NCBI RefSeq assembly: GCF_046105845.1
Contig: NZ_CP151004.1
From: Escherichia coli
Lineage (GTDB): Bacteria > Pseudomonadota > Gammaproteobacteria > Enterobacterales > Enterobacteriaceae
DNA: 64,000 nt
Reading direction: 5' to 3' (one strand)
Notes under the pieces: model-generated
Databases searched by the model: none
What the model was told of the DNA's origin: nothing
The model's input: only the letters and a program-made list of their open reading frames with translations
Made by a program: the position numbers and the translations under genes
Shown: piece after piece, positions 1 through 54,101 of the stretch
Position numbering within the stretch: position 1 is the stretch's first letter
How the letters are laid out: each line of letters starts with the position of its first letter

Positions 1-98
<98 letters not shown>

Positions 99-137
99 TC
101 AATTACGGTTTATCCCCGATCCAACGGGGAGCACCAA

Positions 138-671
<534 letters not shown>

Positions 672-857
672 TTAACTTTGTAACGTCATAGAGTCAAAGA
701 AAAAGGCAGCCTGTGGTTGCCTTTTGCCAATAATTCGCACACATTGCGGGTTACTGCTTTATTTTCGTTCAGTGCTGATAACGAACATCAACCTGCAAAA
801 CGAAGCGCATAGTTTAAAATGGCTATCATCAATACGCTATATCTGATGGAAAAAAAT

Positions 858-1442
858 ATGCCTAAACTTATTTTAGCCTCCACCTCGCCCTGGCGTCGCG
901 CTCTTCTGGAAAAACTGCAAATCTCTTTTGAATGTGCAGCACCCGAGGTCGACGAAACTCCACACAGCGACGAATCACCGCGACAGTTGGTGCTTCGACT
1001 GGCACAAGAAAAAGCGCAATCTCTGGCGTCACGTTATCCGGATCATTTAATTATTGGTTCAGACCAGGTATGTGTTCTTGATGGCGAAATCACAGGTAAA
1101 CCGTTAACGGAAGAAAATGCCCGTCTGCAATTACGTAAAGCCAGCGGCAATATCGTCACCTTCTATACTGGACTGGCGTTGTTTAATTCGGCGAATGGGC
1201 ATCTGCAAACAGAAGTGGAGCCTTTTGACGTCCATTTCCGTCACCTGAGCGAGGCGGAGATTGATAATTACGTGCGTAAAGAGCATCCCCTGCACTGCGC
1301 GGGTAGCTTTAAGAGTGAAGGATTTGGCATTACTCTGTTTGAGCGTTTAGAGGGGCGTGATCCTAACACGCTGGTTGGTTTACCGCTAATCGCGCTGTGT
1401 CAGATGTTACGTCGGGAAGGGAAAAACCCGCTGATGGGATAG
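858..1442 (+). CDS. yceF: Maf-like nucleotide pyrophosphatase YceF
   Basis: Track ORF 819-1442; known protein starts at [14 protein letters not shown] (194 aa), so start placed at 858. Confidence 0.9.
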
Positions 1443-1450
1443 TTGTTTGC

Positions 1451-1522
1451 GCCGGATGCGGTTACTTCGCATCCGGCAATCGGTGCTGGCGGCCTGATGC
1501 GGCGTAAACGCCTTATCAGGCC
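1451..1522. repeat. REP/BIME palindromic units in the yceF-rluC convergent intergenic region
   Basis: Two imperfect palindromes of the GCCGGATGCGG...CGCATCCGGC and GGCCTGATGCGGCGTAAACGCCTTATCAGGCC type. Confidence 0.6.
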
Positions 1523-1553
1523 AACCGCCCATTATCAGGTTTATATGCTTGTA

Positions 1554-2513
1554 TTAGCGCGCGTTACGCAGCTTTTGCAAACAACGCTTCAAACCTTCAT
1601 CCATCGGCGCTTCGATACGCATCACCTCACCGGTCCCCGGATGAGTAAACTTCAACGCTGCAGCGTGCAGGAACAGGCGATTTAATCCCGTGCCTGCTTC
1701 AGTGAGCTGTCTGTCAAATTCACGGTCACCGTAGCGATCGTCAAAGGCAATCGGATGACCCGCATACTGTGTATGAACACGGATCTGATGAGTACGCCCT
1801 GTTACCGGGCTACAACGCACCAGGGTGGCAAAAGCATAGCGTTCTTCCACTTTAAAGCGTGTTTCCGACGGTTTGCCTTCCTGACTCACACGCACGATAC
1901 GTTCGCCGCTTTGCAGAATATTTTTCAGCAACGGCGCTTGAACGCTCTTCACATGCGACTGCCACTGACCGCGCACCAGCGCCAGGTAATCTTTTTGCAT
2001 CCCTTTTTCACGTAATTGCTCATGCAGAGAACGCAACGCCGAGCGTTTTTTCGCTACCAGCAACACACCTGAAGTGTCCCGGTCGAGACGATGAACCAGT
2101 TCAAGGAACCGCGCTTCCGGGCGCAACGCCCGCAAACCTTCGATAACGCCGAAGCTTAAACCACTGCCGCCATGTACCGCCGTACCGGAAGGTTTATTCA
2201 GCACCAGGATATGGTCATCTTCATATAAGATGACGTCCGCCAGCGCTGCCACCTTTTGCAGATGTGGCGAAACCGCCTCTTCTTCCCGCTCAGCAACGCG
2301 AACCGGTGGGATACGCACCTCATCACCCGCTTCGAGTTTATATTCAGGCTTAATACGTTTTTTGTTCACCCGCACTTCGCCTTTACGCAAAATACGGTAA
2401 ATCATACTTTTTGGTACGCCTTTCAATTGGGTACGCAAAAAGTTATCGATACGTTGCCCCGCTTCGTCAGCGGTGATAGCAACAATTTTTACGGATGGAG
2501 TCTCTGTTTTCAT
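1554..2513 (-). CDS. rluC: 23S rRNA pseudouridine(955/2504/2580) synthase RluC
   Basis: 319-aa ORF, full-length match to RluC (S4 domain plus pseudouridine synthase core HRLDRDTSG). Confidence 0.92.
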   Translation of the reverse strand: MKTETPSVKIVAITADEAGQRIDNFLRTQLKGVPKSMIYRILRKGEVRVNKKRIKPEYKLEAGDEVRIPPVRVAEREEEAVSPHLQKVAALADVILYEDDHILVLNKPSGTAVHGGSGLSFGVIEGLRALRPEARFLELVHRLDRDTSGVLLVAKKRSALRSLHEQLREKGMQKDYLALVRGQWQSHVKSVQAPLLKNILQSGERIVRVSQEGKPSETRFKVEERYAFATLVRCSPVTGRTHQIRVHTQYAGHPIAFDDRYGDREFDRQLTEAGTGLNRLFLHAAALKFTHPGTGEVMRIEAPMDEGLKRCLQKLRNAR

Positions 2514-2639
2514 GGTGGGCGATTCTAATTAGCCAACAGGATTCGCGCCACTCATTTTTCTATGCTTATATTTAGTTTTGCACCTTATTACTTCACTACG
2601 TGATCACTTTATTGATGGTTATTAAACCAATTACCAGCA

Positions 2640-3085
2640 AGAAGTGAAAAAACTGTGAGTAAGCGGGTGATAAATGGTAAAAGTCATCTTGCTATAACAA
2701 GGCTTGCAGTGGAATAATGAGGCCGTTTCCGTGTCCATCCTTGTTAAAACAAGAAATTTTACGGAATAACCCATTTTGCCCGACCGATCATCCACGCAGC
2801 AATGGCGTAAGACGTATTGATCTTTCAGGCAGTTAGCGGGCTGCGGGTTGCAGTCCTTACCGGTAGATGGAAATATTTCTGGAGAGTAATACCCAGTCTG
2901 TTTCTTTGATAATTGCGCTGTTTTTCCGCATGAAAAACGGGCAACCGACACTCTGCGCCTCTTTGAGCTGACGATAACCGTGAGGTTGGCGACGCGACTA
3001 GACACGAGGCCATCGGTTCACACCCGGAAAGGCGTTACTTTGCCCGCAGCTTAGTCGTCAATGTAAGAATAATGAGTAAGTTACG
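2640..3085 (+). promoter_or_regulatory. rne promoter and long structured 5' leader (RNase E autoregulation region); boundaries approximate
   Basis: About 450 bp of non-coding sequence directly upstream of rne; the long autoregulatory rne leader is established knowledge; promoter elements not mapped here. Confidence 0.4.
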
Positions 3086-6000
3086 ATGAAAAGAATGTTA
3101 ATCAACGCAACTCAGCAGGAAGAGTTGCGCGTTGCCCTTGTAGATGGGCAGCGTCTGTATGACCTGGATATCGAAAGTCCAGGGCACGAGCAGAAAAAGG
3201 CAAACATCTACAAAGGTAAAATCACCCGCATTGAACCGAGTCTGGAAGCTGCTTTTGTTGATTACGGCGCTGAACGTCACGGTTTCCTCCCACTAAAAGA
3301 AATTGCCCGCGAATATTTCCCTGCTAACTACAGTGCTCATGGTCGCCCCAACATTAAAGATGTGTTGCGTGAAGGTCAGGAAGTCATTGTTCAGATCGAT
3401 AAAGAAGAGCGCGGCAACAAAGGCGCGGCATTAACCACCTTTATCAGTCTGGCGGGTAGCTATCTGGTTCTGATGCCGAACAACCCGCGCGCGGGTGGCA
3501 TTTCTCGTCGTATCGAAGGCGACGACCGTACCGAATTAAAAGAAGCACTGGCAAGCCTTGAACTGCCGGAAGGCATGGGGCTTATCGTGCGCACCGCTGG
3601 CGTCGGCAAATCTGCTGAGGCGCTGCAATGGGATTTAAGCTTCCGTCTGAAACACTGGGAAGCCATCAAAAAAGCCGCTGAAAGCCGCCCAGCTCCGTTC
3701 CTGATTCATCAGGAGAGCAACGTAATCGTTCGCGCATTCCGCGATTACTTACGTCAGGACATCGGCGAAATCCTTATCGATAACCCGAAAGTGCTCGAAC
3801 TGGCACGCCAGCATATCGCTGCATTAGGTCGCCCGGATTTCAGCAGCAAAATCAAACTGTACACCGGCGAGATCCCGCTGTTCAGCCACTACCAGATCGA
3901 GTCACAGATTGAGTCCGCCTTCCAGCGTGAAGTTCGTCTGCCATCCGGTGGTTCCATTGTTATCGACAGCACCGAAGCGTTAACGGCCATCGACATCAAC
4001 TCCGCACGCGCGACCCGCGGCGGCGATATCGAAGAAACCGCGTTTAACACTAACCTCGAAGCTGCCGATGAGATTGCTCGTCAGCTGCGCCTGCGTGACC
4101 TCGGCGGCCTGATTGTTATCGACTTCATCGACATGACGCCAGTACGCCACCAGCGTGCGGTAGAAAACCGTCTGCGTGAAGCGGTGCGTCAGGACCGTGC
4201 GCGTATTCAAATCAGCCATATTTCTCGCTTTGGCCTGCTGGAAATGTCCCGTCAGCGCCTGAGCCCATCACTGGGTGAATCCAGCCATCACGTCTGCCCG
4301 CGCTGCTCCGGTACCGGTACCGTGCGTGACAACGAATCGCTGTCGCTCTCTATTCTGCGTCTGATCGAAGAAGAAGCGCTGAAAGAGAACACCCAGGAAG
4401 TTCACGCCATTGTTCCTGTGCCAATCGCTTCTTACCTGCTGAATGAAAAACGTTCTGCAGTGAATGCGATTGAAACTCGTCAGGACGGCGTGCGCTGTGT
4501 GATTGTGCCAAACGATCAGATGGAAACCCCGCACTACCATGTGCTGCGCGTGCGTAAAGGGGAAGAAACTCCAACCTTAAGCTACATGCTGCCGAAGCTG
4601 CATGAAGAAGCGATGGCGCTGCCGTCTGAAGAAGAGTTCGCTGAACGTAAGCGTCCTGAACAACCTGCGCTGGCAACCTTTGCCATGCCGGATGTGCCGC
4701 CAGCTCCAACCCCAGCTGAACCTGCCGCGCCTGTTGTAGCCCCAGCACCTAAAGCTGCAACGGCAACACCAGCATCTCCTGCACAACCAGGGTTGTTGAG
4801 CCGCTTCTTCGGCGCACTGAAAGCGCTGTTCAGCGGTGGTGAAGAAACCAAACCGGCCGAGCAACCAGCACCGAAAGCAGAAGCGAAACCGGAACGTCAA
4901 CAGGATCGTCGCAAGCCTCGTCAGAACAACCGCCGTGACCGTAATGAGCGCCGCGACACCCGTAGTGAACGTACTGAAGGCAGCGATAATCGCGAAGAAA
5001 ACCGTCGTAATCGTCGCCAGGCACAGCAGCAGACTGCCGAGACGCGTGAGAGCCGTCAGCAGGCTGAGGTAACGGAAAAAGCACGTACCACCGACGAGCA
5101 GCAAGCGCCGCGTCGTGAACGTAGCCGCCGCCGTAACGATGATAAACGTCAGGCGCAACAAGAAGCGAAGGCGCTGAATGTTGAAGAGCAATCTGTTCAG
5201 GAAACCGAACAGGAAGAACGTGTACGTCCAGTTCAGCCGCGTCGTAAACAGCGTCAGCTCAATCAGAAAGTGCGTTACGAGCAAAGCGTAGCCGAAGAAG
5301 CGGTAGTCGCACCGGTGGTTGAAGAAACTGTCGCTGCCGAACCAATTGTTCAGGAAGCGCCAGCTCCACGCACAGAACTGGTGAAAGTCCCGCTGCCAGT
5401 CGTAGCGCAAGCTGCACCAGAACAGCAAGAAGAGAACAATGCCGATAACCGTGACAACGGTGGCATGCCGCGTCGTTCTCGCCGCTCGCCTCGTCACCTG
5501 CGCGTGAGTGGTCAGCGTCGTCGTCGCTATCGTGACGAGCGTTATCCAACCCAATCGCCAATGCCGTTGACCGTAGCGTGCGCATCTCCGGAACTGGCCT
5601 CTGGCAAAGTCTGGATCCGCTATCCAATTGTACGTCCGCAAGATGTACAGGTCGAAGAGCAGCGCGAACAGGAAGAAGTACAAGTGCAGCCGATGGTGAC
5701 TGAGGTCCCTGTCGCCGCCGCTGTCGAACCTGTTGTTAGCGCACCGGTTGTTGAAGAAGTGGCTGAAGTTGTAGAAGCACCCGTTCATGTTGCCGAACCG
5801 CAACCGGAAGTGGTTGAAACGACGCATCCTGAAGTAATTGCCGCCGCGGTAACTGAACAGCCGCAGGTGATTACCGAGTCTGATGTTGCCGTAGCCCAGG
5901 AAGTTGCAGAACACGCAGAACCGGTGGTTGAACCGCAGGAAGAGACGGCTGATATTGAAGAAGTTGCCGAAACTGCTGAGGTTGTGGTTGCTGAACCTGA

Positions 6001-51017: not shown

Positions 51018-51211
51018 TTATCGTTATGATCAACAAAAGCTACCAGCATAACAAATCCGTGGTCGGTGGCAAAAAAAGCAGATTTCGCTTATTAAAACCA
51101 CACATTGATTGAAGTTTGAATAAACGCGCGATTTTTTAAAAAAGTTTGTTGACCTCAGGTCATGATTTCCCTAAATTAGCGCCCGTTCCAGCAAGACAGG
51201 AACGACAATTT

Positions 51212-51299
51212 GGTGAGGTGTCCGAGTGGCTGAAGGAGCACGCCTGGAAAGTGTGTATACGGCAACGTATCGGGGGTTCGAATCCCCCCCTCACCGCCA
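51212..51299 (+). tRNA. serX: tRNA-Ser (anticodon GGA), 88 nt with long variable arm
   Basis: GGTGAGGTGTCCGAGTGGCTGAAGGAGCACGCCTGGAAAGTGTGTATACGGCAACGTATCGGGGGTTCGAATCCCCCCCTCACCGCCA: acceptor stem pairs, anticodon loop CT-GGA-AA, T-loop GGTTCGAATCC, 3' CCA encoded. Confidence 0.92.
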
Positions 51300-51925
51300 T
51301 CTTTAAAGAAGAGCTCGTACGAAGGTACGGGCTTTTTTTTCGTATATTGCACACACCGGGGGATGAGAAGCCCCGACCGGGGTTCGACAACTGGCGACAG
51401 CCAGTTGGACAGACCGTGAACGCAGTGAGCGGGCTGCCCGCAGGGCGAGCGAAGCGAGTCAATCCCCCCTCACCGCCATCTTTAAAGAAGAGCTCGTACG
51501 AAGGTACGGGCTTTTTTTTCGTATATTGCACACACCGGGGGATGAGAAGCCCCGACCGGGGTTCGACAACTGGCGACAGCCAGTTGGACAGACCGTGAAC
51601 GCAGTGAGCGGGCTGCCCGCAGGGCGAGCGAAGCGAGTCAATCCCCCCTCACCGCCATCTTTAAAGAAGAGCTCGTACGAAGGTACGGGCTTTTTTTTCG
51701 TATATTGCACACACCGGGGGATGAGAAGCCCCGACCGGGGTTCGACAACTGGCGACAGCCAGTTGGACAGACCGTGAACGCAGTGAGCGGGCTGCCCGCA
51801 GGGCGAGCGAAGCGAGTCAATCCCCCCCTCACCGCCATCTTTAAAGAAGAGCTCGTACGAAAGTACGGGCTTCTTTTTCGTATATTGCACACACCGGGGG
51901 GATGAGAAGCCCCGATCGGGGTACT
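51281..51925. repeat. Tandem direct repeats, 179-180 bp unit, about 3.5 copies, each beginning with a copy of the serX 3' end and terminator hairpin
   Basis: Units start at 51301, 51480, 51659 and 51839 (CTTTAAAGAAGAGCTCGTACGAAGGTACGGGCTTTTTTTTCG...); copies near-identical; last copy degenerate (GAAAG loop, CTTCTTTTT); each unit ends with AATCCCCCCTCACCGCCATC resembling the tRNA T-arm/acceptor 3' half. Confidence 0.9.
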
Positions 51926-51928
51926 TAG

Positions 51929-52615
51929 TTAATGCAACGGTTCACCCTTTGTCGCCGCGGCTAATGGGCGAATTTTGTCACGGGTATCCCAGACCGGAGG
52001 GATTTCATCCAATTTAGTGACAGAAGCTCGTACAAAAGGCACCCGTGCAATAGTCATAATCGTATTCAACCAACGGTCACGAATAATGCGATCTGCCCTT
52101 TCATGACTCGGATCATCCAGCTCAATAACACAGACTATTTTGTTGTTCTTCTTTGAAATCAGAACATAATCCATTGCCATTCCATTATAAATTGCAAAGA
52201 AACGCTTTCTTTCTTCTTCGCTAAACTCGGGTTGTTCTGGAAAGTTGATCAAGCGCCCCAGAGAGACCTGGCAATGGATATGACAATAATGTCCAAACCA
52301 TTTCTCCAGATTATCAAAATAGATTTTTTCACAACGCGTAATTAACCACTCTTTTCCTTCCAATAAAATACCTTCGGCAACCATTCCCTGGAACAACTCA
52401 TCTCGTTCTTGCCAACGAGAGTCACGATAGGTTTTCTGCGGTGTATAGCTCCTTGTCGACGCCTTAGCCGCAGGGGAAGTTGCAGAGGAAGGGACTGGTT
52501 GCGATCTAGTGATGATTACCGATGAGGCAACTTTTCGGAGTGTCAATTTTCTGGCAACAGCAAAACCGGCGACAAATGCAATTGTCAAACAAGTTACAAA
52601 AACCATAAAGCTCAT
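51929..52615 (-). CDS. Hypothetical membrane-anchored protein (228 aa), function unknown
   Basis: ATG at 52613-52615 with AGGTGA RBS 9 nt upstream; N-terminal TM helix MSFMVFVTCLTIAFVAGFAVA, Ser/Pro-rich linker, C-terminal soluble domain with HYCHIHC and IELDDPSHERADRIIRDR; occupies the position of ycdU in K-12 (from memory) but identity not verified. Confidence 0.6.
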   Translation of the reverse strand: MSFMVFVTCLTIAFVAGFAVARKLTLRKVASSVIITRSQPVPSSATSPAAKASTRSYTPQKTYRDSRWQERDELFQGMVAEGILLEGKEWLITRCEKIYFDNLEKWFGHYCHIHCQVSLGRLINFPEQPEFSEEERKRFFAIYNGMAMDYVLISKKNNKIVCVIELDDPSHERADRIIRDRWLNTIMTIARVPFVRASVTKLDEIPPVWDTRDKIRPLAAATKGEPLH

Positions 52616-53177: not shown

Positions 53178-54101
53178 TTAACTGTATGCATGTAGCGTAC
53201 GTTGGCAAAGTGCCGAACGTACGCAATCCTCTTTACCGAATCGGACGATCCCGACCATTTCATCTTCTTCGAAACGTTCCAGCGCGTCACTTAATCCGGA
53301 TCGCACGCCGCGAGGCAAATCGCATTGCGTGATATCACCGTTGACGATAACCGTCACGTTCTCCCCGAGGCGGGTTAAAAACATTTTCATTTGCGCGGCA
53401 GTCACATTCTGCGCCTCGTCAAGAATGACGACTGCATTTTCAAAGGTACGTCCACGCATATAGGCGAACGGCGCAATTTCCACCTTCCCTATTTCCGGTC
53501 GCAGGCAGTACTGCATAAAGGAAGCCCCTAAGCGCCGGACCAGCACGTCGTAGACCGGGCGAAAATAGGGAGCAAACTTTTCTGCGATATCACCAGGTAA
53601 GAAGCCAAGATCTTCATCGGCTTGCAGAACTGGACGGGTGACGATAATCCTGTCGACATCCTTATGTATCAGGGCCTCTGCCGCTTTTGCTGCGCTGATC
53701 CAGGTTTTTCCGCACCCGGCTTCGCCCGTGGCGAATATCAGCTGCTTACTCTCAATAGCCTTCAGATAGTGCAATTGCGCTTCATTTCGCGCGAGGATGG
53801 GCGAGGTATCGCGACTGTCGCGGGCCATACCAATGGCTTCTACGCCGCTCATCTGCACAAGCGAGGTGACCGATTCTTCTTCACGCTGCTTATGGCTGCG
53901 CGAATCCCGTCTCAGCACACGTTTTGCCTCGCGACGAGCTTTGATCACTGCTTTTTGTCTTCCCATGGAGAGCACCTTGAGTTGTTTGTATTCATCACAC
54001 GCGCCGTTGGCAGCGCGATTATGCGCACGAACATCAGAGGGTTGGCTTCCTTGTAAGCCATAGTTTGCTTTTGGATAAAATGCCGAAAAACGGCTACGCA
54101 C
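53178..54101 (-). CDS. phoH: Phosphate starvation-inducible ATPase PhoH; N-terminal extent uncertain
   Basis: Longest in-frame ORF is 307 codons from GTG 54101 (first ATG at 53966, MGRQKAVIKARREAKR..., giving 262 aa); Walker A GEAGCGKT and PhoH core conserved; see finding on a possible 5' frameshift. Confidence 0.85.
   Translation of the reverse strand: MRSRFSAFYPKANYGLQGSQPSDVRAHNRAANGACDEYKQLKVLSMGRQKAVIKARREAKRVLRRDSRSHKQREEESVTSLVQMSGVEAIGMARDSRDTSPILARNEAQLHYLKAIESKQLIFATGEAGCGKTWISAAKAAEALIHKDVDRIIVTRPVLQADEDLGFLPGDIAEKFAPYFRPVYDVLVRRLGASFMQYCLRPEIGKVEIAPFAYMRGRTFENAVVILDEAQNVTAAQMKMFLTRLGENVTVIVNGDITQCDLPRGVRSGLSDALERFEEDEMVGIVRFGKEDCVRSALCQRTLHAYS

Follow-up and report, generated by a model that had tools for sequence, protein, structure and literature searches.

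The serX locus and its repeat array

The window analysed here, a stretch of 64,000 nucleotides from an Escherichia coli genome (NZ_CP151004.1), contains the gene for tRNA-Ser(GGA), serX, followed by a tandem array and then by a DUF2726 gene (51929-52615) that is convergent with the array. The gene phoH is also a neighbour, and at the corresponding locus of other genomes ghrA adjoins the annotated tRNA-Ser. The features of the region are the following.

51149..51177, + strand: putative sigma-70-like serX promoter, TTGACC, 17-nt spacer, TAAATT, then a GC-rich discriminator (consensus scan, 9/12)
51212..51299, + strand: tRNA-Ser(GGA), serX (ARAGORN; Rfam tRNA, 53.8 bits)
51281..51925, + strand: whole tandem array, 3.6 units of 179-180 bp (TRF and repeat search)
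51281-51299 (within the tRNA), 51461-51478, 51640-51657, 51819-51837: tRNA-derived segment AATCCCCCC(C)TCACCGCCA (exact match)
51286-51299, 51465-51478, 51644-51657, 51824-51837, + strand: 14-bp core CCCCCTCACCGCCA (exact match)
51313-51340, 51492-51519, 51671-51698, + strand: terminator-like hairpin GCTCGTAC-GAAG-GTACGGGC with T8, 8-bp stem (exact match)
51851-51878, + strand: degenerate fourth hairpin, loop GAAA, tail TTCTTTTT (consensus scan)
51344..51478, + strand: RtT element 1, Ser-type, 3' tail CUCACCGCCA (RF00391, 43.1 bits, E 1.8e-6, model 1-130)
51523..51657, + strand: RtT element 2, same sequence as element 1 (RF00391, 43.1 bits)
51700..51837, + strand: RtT element 3 (RF00391, 41.1 bits)
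51838..51925, + strand: truncated fourth unit, a degenerate terminator and about 45 nt of RtT body through GGGGGGATGAGAAGCCCCGATCGGGGT (sequence and unit comparison)

An earlier note on this DNA had described about 3.5 repeats of 179-180 bp after serX, and TRF agreed with it, reporting a single array at 51285-51922 with a period of 179, 3.6 copies, 98% matches, 0 indels and a score of 1237. By repeat search of the window, three 185-nt copies that are mutually 100% identical were found at 179-bp spacing, and the first 82 nt of the repeat are present four times (starts at 51281, 51460, 51639 and 51819). In its last 19 nt (51281-51299), serX itself already holds the first copy of the tRNA-derived segment. 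A unit is made up of a terminator hairpin with T8, a predicted multi-helix RNA of about 115 nt and an 18-19-nt copy of the tRNA 3' end through CCA, the first RtT body beginning 45 nt 3' of the serX CCA on the same strand. The same note had placed a copy of the tRNA 3' half at the start of each unit; the copy is there, but at the RNA level the unit ends, and does not start, with it. Elements 1 and 2 have 6 C in their C run, and element 3 has 7, like the tRNA. The last unit was rightly called degenerate, as it carries three substitutions and is truncated at about 51922, after which the DUF2726 gene follows.

Two further candidates were considered. Within the DUF2726 gene, a 14-nt match at the correct spacing hinted at a fifth, degenerate unit, which was not established, as its global alignment to a unit lay only about 1.9 standard deviations over shuffles. 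A reading of the units as pseudo-tRNAs was rejected; ARAGORN finds one tRNA, and the Rfam tRNA model gives no unit matches at E up to 1.

The units belong to the RtT family

The array is most probably one serX RtT allele of E. coli, and its 179-bp units Ser-type members of the RtT family. The repeat array at serX is thus an already catalogued element, since three of the K-12 units carry the RefSeq label RtT sRNA; the K-12 serX locus holds 4.3 units of 181 bp. This existing annotation had been missed in the earlier note.

Rfam lists RtT as RF00391 with a curated gathering score of 45 bits. The three full units of the window match model positions 1-130 with 43.1, 43.1 and 41.1 bits (E 1.8e-6 to 5.5e-6), and the K-12 serX units, about 98% identical to them, reach 46.3 bits and pass the cut-off. 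The window scores fall under 45 bits because one G:C pair is missing in the closing helix P1, and because the window allele lies below the cut-off, the array is unannotated in the nearest relative. Against the same model, tyrT units score 133-137 bits and Ser-type units 41-46 bits. The RtT model consists mainly of tyrT elements. Other Rfam matches over the tRNA and the terminator (sX4 with 34 vs 70 bits, Thr_leader and Plastid-psbl-rps4) were far under their cut-offs and were discarded as chance.

The K-12 serX RtT lies at the same ghrA-serX locus in the same register. The K-12 array has 4.3 units of 181 bp and that of the window 3.6 of 179 bp, with P1 shorter by one G:C pair, and the right junction is formed by the DUF2726 gene in the window and by ycdU in K-12.

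A likeness to the 178-bp repeats downstream of tyrT had been pointed out before, and this was borne out by the full-length match to the RtT model (E about 2e-6) and by the motifs common to serX and tyrT units, namely GAUGAGAA, CGAC, GGUUCGA, CCCGNAGGG and AAUCC...CCA. Judged by sequence, the serX and tyrT repeats are homologous. In the tyrT-tyrV 178-bp repeats (RF00391; rttR) as in the serX array, a tRNA gene is directly followed by units of about 178 bp in tandem. In both, the unit ends in the T-loop/T-stem 3' half, the acceptor 3' strand and the CCA of its own tRNA, and a 5' G-rich segment pairs with the T-stem copy as a closing helix. The partner tRNA, however, is Ser(GGA) for serX units and Tyr for tyrT units, and all four T-stem-like segments are of the GGGG/CCCC kind in serX units and of the GAAG/CTTC kind in tyrT units. 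Furthermore, serX units have an extra interior 8-bp hairpin, P3, and a predicted intrinsic terminator that separates the RtT body from the tRNA-like end, whereas tyrT units have no such terminator.

A literature search found no description of the serX array; neither rttR nor serX is named in a TRIC-seq preprint, and RtT does not occur in the current version of the CoCoNuT paper. Ser-type RtT forms a subfamily of its own that is poorly modelled, and the remaining novelty is modest.

RNA structure and covariation

Within the unit, five helices were predicted by folding and covariation (positions given for element 1).

51358-51364 with 51462-51468, + strand: predicted P1
51369-51374 with 51379-51384, + strand: predicted P2
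51388-51395 with 51400-51407, + strand: predicted P3
51410-51416 with 51430-51436, + strand: predicted P4
51437-51439 with 51443-51445, + strand: predicted P5

The closing helix P1 would be built with the copied 3' strand of the tRNA T stem, and the copies of the acceptor 3' strand, the discriminator base and CCA would stay unpaired at the end of the unit. The window unit has a predicted fold of -76.6 kcal/mol (z -4.46), and the hairpin of the terminator, lengthened by pairing between the A-tract and the U-tract, belongs to this predicted minimum-energy fold.

Across 67 distinct Ser-type copies, standard pairs were found in 94.3% of cells, and changes on both sides occurred at 18 of the 30 pairs of P1-P4 (93 cells). 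This level was reached by none of 500 shuffles and compares with 4-7 pairs in slid controls; in these controls, an effect of shared ancestry partly remains. RNAalifold independently recovers P1, P2, P3 and P5. The proposed helices are partly unlike the Rfam consensus structure, and the long-range pairs of Rfam sit in invariant columns. Taken together, the RtT unit appears as a conserved structured RNA with a closing helix backed by covariation. The short inverted repeats of the earlier note are present, but what it had missed is that they are helices of the conserved RtT RNA.

Partner tRNAs and T-stem-like segments

The wider distribution of the family was addressed with a motif scan that took a single genome for each species and left the T-stem-like positions free. 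Among the matches listed were at least 190 elements, all from Enterobacterales. Of the elements among these listed matches, 87 lie behind tRNA-Tyr(GTA), 83 behind tRNA-Ser(GGA) and 20 had no tRNA in the fetched locus; behind any other tRNA there were 0, and all 170 of the listed elements with a tRNA fit the pattern. As far as the sequences tell, there are two tRNA-matched RtT subfamilies across Enterobacterales, a Ser-type behind tRNA-Ser(GGA) and the classical type behind tRNA-Tyr.

In sequence, the four T-stem-like segments of an element follow the T stem of the tRNA next to it. In the Tyr-type they read GAAGG / CUUC / AAGG / CCUUC and in the Ser-type GGGGG / CCCC / GGGG / CCCCC. In Escherichia whittamii (L051) and at a second locus (L096), the tRNA-Ser T-stem pair 49:65 has changed from G:C to C:G, and segments 1, 2 and 4 share this flip at both loci, while segment 3 flips only in L051. 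The change in segment 2 is not explained by helices 1:4 and 2:3 alone but is accounted for by an alternative 1:2 hairpin, which would suggest that two exclusive folds are under selection.

It is thus possible, if still tentative, that RtT elements are partner-specific T-arm/acceptor mimics of the long-variable-arm tRNAs Tyr(GTA) and Ser(GGA) that switch between two folds. In one of them the junction would be closed, and in the other, the open form, the tRNA-like 3' end would be exposed. The switch could occur in transcription, in processing or in a decoy action on a factor by which the T arm and the CCA end of that one partner tRNA are recognised. Constrained folding of the window unit gave -47.5 kcal/mol for the open form (1:2 and 3:4) and -56.1 kcal/mol for the closed form. 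As the open form is less stable, any switch would have to be kinetic and not one of equilibrium.

Copy number and strain variation

Whether the copy number varies between strains had been raised as an open question, and it does. A full unit is found in 3,360 of 5,426 complete E. coli genomes and is lacking in 2,066 (38%); unit matches range from 1 to 11 per complete genome with a median of 2, and the array is not identical in all E. coli. At the K-12-type right junction, arrays have about 0.3, 1.3, 2.3, 3.3 or 4.3 copies, and at the DUF2726-type right junction 0.6, 1.6 or 3.6 copies. A copy that is about 91% identical is found at serW (infA-serW-clpA) in some strains, and serX and serW elements of other E. 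coli strains carry the RtT sRNA label in RefSeq. Other genera most often have just one RtT, and unit periods across species run from 175 to 184 bp.

All full units of the window differ from all K-12 units in the same way, with TCTTT in place of TATTT, a GAAG in place of a GAAA loop and 5 G in place of 6 G. The C run that pairs with this G run has 6 C in window units 1-2 and 7 in unit 3, compared with 7 in K-12. The fourth unit, at the edge of the window array, is K-12-like at the variable positions (GAAA loop, 6 G). That units are uniform within a strain and different between strains points to unequal recombination. One RtT would already give two 18-19-nt direct repeats 179 bp apart, and two units would supply 179-bp repeats for recombination. 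From these sequence patterns, we infer that unequal homologous recombination or replication slippage would expand, contract and homogenise the array.

Identical tandem copies of 179 bp are difficult to resolve with short reads, and the array could in principle be an assembly artefact in which copies were collapsed or expanded. The chance of this is negligible, as the independent complete genome NZ_CP145630 shows the matching 3.6-copy layout in a single co-linear alignment with 98.8% identity, full units occur in 3,360 complete genomes in arrays of 1-11 matches, and the 4.3-copy array of K-12 is well established.

A copy-number-variable RtT repeat is also used for strain typing: VNTR ms09 of the Shigella/E. 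coli MLVA scheme has a 179-bp unit and a variable copy number (PMC8215070). It resembles the serX array in consisting of copy-number-variable RtT units of about 179 bp. The identity of the two was considered and rejected, as the primers of ms09 lie on either side of the tyrT array (L004, 1901-2907) and have no match to the serX locus or the window.

Genomic islands and the att core

In the window, the core CCCCCTCACCGCCA has the same sequence as the 14-bp direct repeat found at the flanks of the O157 islands OI-43/OI-48 and of the Shigella SRL island (PMC3064760). A comparison of the tRNA-derived segment with known att cores had been suggested before, and it showed that this repeat is present in every unit of the array, as at the att sites of P4-type integrase islands (SRL, OI-43/OI-48). 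The array might therefore be a scar or a landing pad of integrative elements, its tRNA-derived segments being att remnants of successive integration and excision events at serX or decoy attB sites for P4-type integrases. In many genomes serX is occupied by an island and homology to the window ends exactly at the tRNA 3' end, as in O157:H7; strain 95-3322 has an integrase gene and island DNA directly against the 14-bp core, with a 1.6-unit array behind it. Both observations speak for such an origin, as does the listing of the RtT model among candidate ncRNA targets by Phage_Finder (PMC12540744). At locus L125, an island junction with the exact 14-bp core precedes the RtT array, which lies beyond the far island junction.

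However, in a spread sample of 40 genomes the homology breaks fall at the genuine tRNA terminus (query position 400), and none of the breaks in this sample was at the end of a unit copy, where they would be expected at query positions of about 579, 758 and 937. In the sampled genomes, islands enter at the true tRNA end rather than at the unit copies, despite the att core in every unit. No integrase gene was found beside the array or anywhere in the window. Site-specific integration and excision would not duplicate 160 bp of chromosomal flank, and the part of the unit outside the core is a structured RNA with compensatory changes across genera, which att function does not explain. Furthermore, tRNA-Tyr is followed by an identical architecture. 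Unlike island att sites, the serX units are conserved parts of the chromosome that encode a structured RNA, and islands are seen only at the genuine tRNA end. An origin as scar or landing pad is consequently quite unlikely, and the reading of the array as RtT elements is preferred.

Coding potential

Open reading frames of 66-150 amino acids lie over the array on both strands. The tyrT repeats contain a small basic, protamine-like ORF, Tpr, and by analogy the serX units might encode a small protein as well. In one genome, RefSeq has a hypothetical protein of 152 amino acids over the serW RtT region (L128, 3123-3581), which, together with the ORFs that cover both strands of the array, could be taken in favour of this. 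Nevertheless, a small protein is highly improbable. Several frames on both strands are open, and the open frames change with the period of 179, 180 or 181 bp in the window, its nearest relative and K-12. No frame is conserved among these three and no Tpr-like ORF was found in them, in contrast to the conserved ORF of the tyrT repeats. Across species, the period varies from 175 to 184 bp and element lengths vary without keeping to multiples of three, and one of the ORFs reads across the tRNA gene. The earlier note had already called these ORFs repeat artefacts, and the shifting frames on both strands bear this out.

Transcription, processing and proposed role

The putative promoter at 51149..51177 would drive serX. 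A hairpin with GAAG loop and T-run had been described before and is present in exact copies, and its sequence and predicted fold would fit an intrinsic terminator after the tRNA. A terminator consensus scan of the + strand listed the fourth copy and not units 1-3, probably because pairing of the A-tract with the T-tract absorbs the T run. Transcription would thus begin at the serX promoter and mostly halt at the first terminator, and by analogy to tyrT, read-through transcripts would contain one or more RtT units. Since each unit rebuilds the junction of tRNA 3' end and trailer, the nucleases that mature the 3' end of serX should cut there too. Processing would yield unit-length RtT RNAs with a CCA end, as for the RtT RNA of tyrT.

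For the latter, a published account that cites Bosl and Kersten 1991 states that a single repeat unit of the tyrT operon encodes the rtT RNA and that the RtT element becomes a discrete RNA through processing of the tRNA primary transcript (PMC3318445). The rtT RNA has been proposed as a modulator of the stringent response (bioRxiv 10.1101/2024.07.17.603846), and in Klebsiella RtT RNAs of 166-170 nt are differentially expressed (PMC4147364). As the terminator is present in serX units and absent from tyrT units, serX RtT RNA may be scarce.

A comparable case of a tRNA-trailer RNA is 3'ETS-leuZ (Lalaouna et al. 2015, as reviewed in PMC8166272), a single-copy RNA of 53 nt that is a sponge for the sRNAs RyhB and RybB. 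Like it, RtT would be a by-product of tRNA 3' processing and could act in trans. RtT differs in being about 130-180 nt long, highly structured and tandem with a tRNA-like CCA end, and the likeness lies in the tRNA-trailer position alone.

The array could also be neutral repeated DNA or a stack of terminators, that is, a serX trailer amplified by slippage with no role at the RNA level. Each unit has a canonical hairpin with T8 and an upstream A-tract that looks bidirectional, and with the DUF2726 gene convergent the hairpins could insulate serX. The array is moreover dispensable, as 38% of E. coli genomes are without a full unit, and its copy number drifts among strains. On the other hand, insulation would need no more than one terminator, the RtT body is kept behind tRNA-Ser(GGA) in many genera, and P1, P3 and P4 show double compensatory changes, with 18 of 30 pairs compared with 0 of 500 shuffles. 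In addition, the tyrT paralogues yield a detectable RNA (PMC3318445). A purely neutral or terminator-like array is therefore unlikely. For RtT as a structured RNA, our best guess is a role as mimic of, or decoy for, the T-arm/CCA end of the tRNA that it accompanies.

Implications

The array in the window should be labelled as RtT repeats and not as ORFs. Ser-type units straddle the Rfam cut-off (41-46 bits) with a model that is tuned to the tyrT type, and because their scores lie so near to it, RefSeq annotation varies by strain and now and then reports a spurious hypothetical protein instead. In the mapping of island boundaries at serX or serW, multiple copies of the direct repeat are to be expected. 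The serX array is a strongly copy-variable locus, separate from the tyrT locus ms09 and outside that scheme, and could serve strain typing.

RtT has been known since 1991, and the question of its function is equally old. The two tRNA-matched RtT subfamilies, which appear to be conserved by covariation across Enterobacterales, give concrete mutational designs such as swaps of the T-stem-like segments.

The array behind serX

The tandem repeats reported behind serX in the earlier note are a real feature and had been described correctly. Tandem Repeats Finder returned one array at 51285-51922 (period 179, 3.6 copies, 98% matches, 0 indels), and a repeat search of the window found three 185-nt copies, 100% identical and spaced 179 bp apart, with the first 82 nt present four times (starts 51281, 51460, 51639 and 51819). 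Across the window, ARAGORN located one tRNA only, tRNA-Ser(GGA) (51212-51299, + strand), and it was identified as serX because its upstream neighbours on the opposite strand are ghrA, ycdX, ycdY and ycdZ. The repeated block starts within this tRNA gene itself. The last unit had been called degenerate, and the fourth is indeed cut off near 51922 and carries three substitutions.

Elements of the array in the window (segments and hairpins by sequence match, RtT by Rfam search)
51281-51299, 51461-51478, 51640-51657, 51819-51837: tRNA-derived segment AATCCCCCC(C)TCACCGCCA
51313-51340, 51492-51519, 51671-51698: hairpin GCTCGTAC-GAAG-GTACGGGC with T8
51851-51878: degenerate copy of this hairpin
51344-51478: RtT match 1, 43.1 bits, RF00391 model positions 1-130
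51523-51657: RtT match 2, 43.1 bits, model positions 1-130
51700-51837: RtT match 3, 41.1 bits, model positions 1-130

A fifth copy of the terminator-stem motif, AGCTCGTACAAAAG (13/14), lies at 52025-52038, 175 bp past the fourth, in the 3' end of a DUF2726 gene. An older unit may have left it behind; the whole 179-bp stretch, however, aligns to a unit only about 1.9 sd above shuffles.

On both of its strands, the array contains open stretches of 45-209 codons in more than one reading frame. Their arrangement is entirely different in the window (period 179-180), in its nearest relative (180) and in K-12 (181), the period of Ser-type units across species being 175-184 bp, and one listed ORF runs through the tRNA gene. 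They were therefore rejected as genes, in line with their earlier dismissal as artefacts.

Relation to the RtT family

The array belongs to a known family, RtT, which is already annotated at the same locus in K-12. In a permissive Rfam search, the three window matches had E-values of 1.8e-6 to 5.5e-6, just below the RF00391 gathering score of 45 bits. A K-12 derivative carries three features labelled 'RtT sRNA' after serX (locus L001, 3445-3943), where reading the sequence gives four full 181-bp units and a partial fifth. Scores are 46.3 bits for the K-12 serX units and 133-137 bits for the four tyrT-tyrV elements; thus, the Rfam model essentially represents the tyrT type, and the serX units are borderline matches to it. 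Compared with K-12 (6 G and 7 C), the paired runs of the window allele are one G and one C shorter (5 G and 6 C), which places it below the cut-off. For the same reason, the window's closest relative, NZ_CP145630 (98.8% identical, same 3.6-copy layout), is without RtT annotation. RefSeq labelling of these elements varies by allele: where the runs have 5 G and 6 C, units fall short of the Rfam cut-off and receive no label (comparison locus L002, 4400-5030). In one genome (L128, 3123-3581), a 152-aa 'hypothetical protein' was called over the RtT region of serW.

In an alignment, serX and tyrT units share the blocks G-GAUGAGAA, CGAC, GGUUCGA, CCCGNAGGG, GCGAAGCG and AAUCC...CCA, whereas the 45-60 nt from the tRNA-like end to the RtT body are unrelated. 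This stretch contains a predicted intrinsic terminator in serX units, which is absent from tyrT units.

RNA structure

The serX unit is a structured RNA and not merely repeated DNA. The predicted fold of a window unit (-76.6 kcal/mol, z -4.46) consists of the terminator hairpin and a closed multi-helix body. RNAalifold on alignment A2, comprising 67 distinct Ser-type RtT bodies, gave a closing helix, two tetraloop hairpins and a short CCC/GGG hairpin.

Helices of the Ser-type model (A2 columns)
P1: 10-14:132-136
P2: 20-27:32-38
P3: 41-48:53-60
P4: 63-69:83-89
P5: 90-92:98-100

With this five-helix model, 94.3% of cells were paired, and both-side changes occurred at 18 of 30 pairs (93 cells). 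None of 500 shuffles reached the model's count, and slid controls gave only 4-7 such pairs. The inverted repeats noticed earlier found their place here: CAACTGG/CCAGTTG is P3, with 7/8 pairs covarying, and GGGG...CCCC corresponds to parts of P1 and P2. Helix P1 of the model forms between the 5' G run and the copy of the T-stem 3' strand, so that CUCACCGCCA (acceptor 3' strand, discriminator and CCA) remains as a single-stranded tail. For the RtT family, covariation support and a tandem GA motif were already noted (PMC7657543).

Four segments of RtT, not two, follow the tRNA T stem. The tRNA-Ser pair 49:65 is C:G in E. whittamii (L051) and in another comparison locus (L096), and in their RtT copies the corresponding change is seen in segment 4 (the tRNA copy), in segment 1 (its P1 partner) and in segment 2; segment 3 is altered in L051 only, not in L096. 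A hypothetical alternative fold, in which segments 1:2 and 3:4 would pair, has few independent lineages behind it. The 1:2 helix is 97.8% paired, its pair 11:27 having four double changes and one unpaired cell (versus two and three for the P2 pair 27:32), and the 3:4 helix is 98.1% paired. Constrained folding favoured the closed form by 8-11 kcal/mol, so any alternative fold would be transient.

Distribution and tRNA linkage

A scan with the shared motifs fixed and the T-stem-like positions free (one genome per species, at least 120 loci) listed matches exclusively in Enterobacterales, among them Citrobacter, Enterobacter, Klebsiella, Kosakonia, Pluralibacter, Superficieibacter, Trabulsiella, Yokenella, E. 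albertii and E. whittamii. For the 190 elements in the loci listed, the nearest upstream same-strand tRNA was tRNA-Tyr(GTA) in 87 and tRNA-Ser(GGA) in 83, no other tRNA took this place, and 20 had none within the fetched locus. The element type fits its tRNA perfectly (Tyr-linked GAAGG/CUUC/AAGG/CCUUC, Ser-linked GGGGG/CCCC/GGGG/CCCCC). Among the loci listed, other genera most often have just one RtT after the tRNA, Ser-type copies numbering one in 41 loci, two in 14 and three in 5. The second E. coli tRNA-Ser(GGA) gene, serW (infA-serW-clpA), carries a Ser-type RtT in some strains.

Several Enterobacter-like genomes (L018, L024, L026, L060, L068, L078, L106, L111, L112) end their arrays with an RtT lacking the tRNA 3' end; these copies finish in CCCCCCC followed by GGTGC... 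or GGAGC... and break immediately behind the T-stem copy, pointing to an array boundary that is specific and recurs. Enterobacter ludwigii (L084, 1635-2371) has five tandem Tyr-type units (period 167 bp) with a compensated closing-helix change, GAGAAGG with CCUUCUC, not found in the tRNA itself.

Copy number and array evolution

Whether copy number differs between strains had been left as a question, and it does. A 1.8-kb query of the locus matched, at least in part, 5,425 of 5,426 complete E. coli genomes. In a spread sample, arrays with the K-12-type right junction (...CACACACCGGG|TGCCCCC, beside ycdU) measured about 0.3, 1.3, 2.3, 3.3 or 4.3 units, and those with the window-type junction, beside the DUF2726 gene, about 0.6, 1.6 or 3.6. 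A one-unit query found one or more full units in 3,360 genomes and none in 2,066, with 1-11 matches per genome (median 2); serW is included in all these counts.

The window units are mutually identical apart from the C run (six in units 1-2, seven in unit 3; seven throughout K-12). The same positions distinguish every full window unit from all those of K-12 (TCTTT vs TATTT, loop GAAG vs GAAA, G-run length), and the truncated edge unit bears the K-12 variants. Judged from these sequences, such uniformity within arrays together with differences between strains is characteristic of units that evolve in concert through unequal recombination. Their seed appears to be built in, as a lone RtT behind its tRNA would already yield two 18-19-nt direct repeats 179 bp apart.

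Genomic islands and neighbouring region

The last 14 bp of serW and serX are the direct repeat that lies on either side of the O157 islands OI-43/OI-48 and the Shigella SRL island (PMC3064760). A match to a known att core had been proposed as a check, and this core, CCCCCTCACCGCCA, is present in all four tRNA-derived copies of the window. In O157:H7, island genes begin directly after intact serX. Strain 95-3322 has an integrase gene and island DNA up to the junction ...GGCGGT|CCCCCTCACCGCCA, beyond which come an array of 1.6 units and the DUF2726 gene. Homology broke at the true tRNA end in a 40-genome sample, in which no break fell at the end of any unit copy. Islands thus push the array away from the tRNA, and the genomes examined gave no sign that they create it or use its internal copies.

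The DUF2726 gene (228 aa, 51929-52615, - strand) adjoins the array; immediately beyond it, in a stretch that includes 53178-54101, come phoH and efeB. The pgaABCD-ycdT-IS3-ymdE-ycdU block, between phoH and serX in K-12, is missing. This layout is common to 599 E. coli genomes over at least 80% of the 1.8-kb query, and strains without pga and ycdT at this place were described (PMC5635171). Rfam also matched the Yersinia antisense sRNA Ysr251 at 53183-53376 (+ strand, 194 bits, cut-off 100), antisense to the phoH start. The Xanthomonas sRNA sX4 matched weakly (34 bits, cut-off 70) at 51201-51368, a span covering serX plus the first terminator; the tRNA part probably accounts for the match. In an O145:H28 genome, a CRISPR-DR4 match (50 bits, L127 3281-3308, - strand) between the serW RtT and clpA agrees with the position of the CRISPR3/4 locus of E. 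coli, which lies between clpA and infA.

Possible expression and function

Transcription would begin at a promoter-like site of serX (51149-51177) and read partly through each terminator. Unit-length RNAs would then be excised by the enzymes maturing the serX 3' end, since the CCA/trailer junction is recreated in every unit. This scheme follows the tyrT rtT RNA by analogy: one repeat unit of the tyrT operon encodes that RNA (PMC3318445), and a role in modulating the stringent response was proposed for it (bioRxiv 10.1101/2024.07.17.603846). The remaining interest lies in the Ser-type subfamily and its match to the partner tRNA, and our preferred guess is that the serX RtT RNA may mimic the T-arm/CCA end of that tRNA or serve as its decoy.
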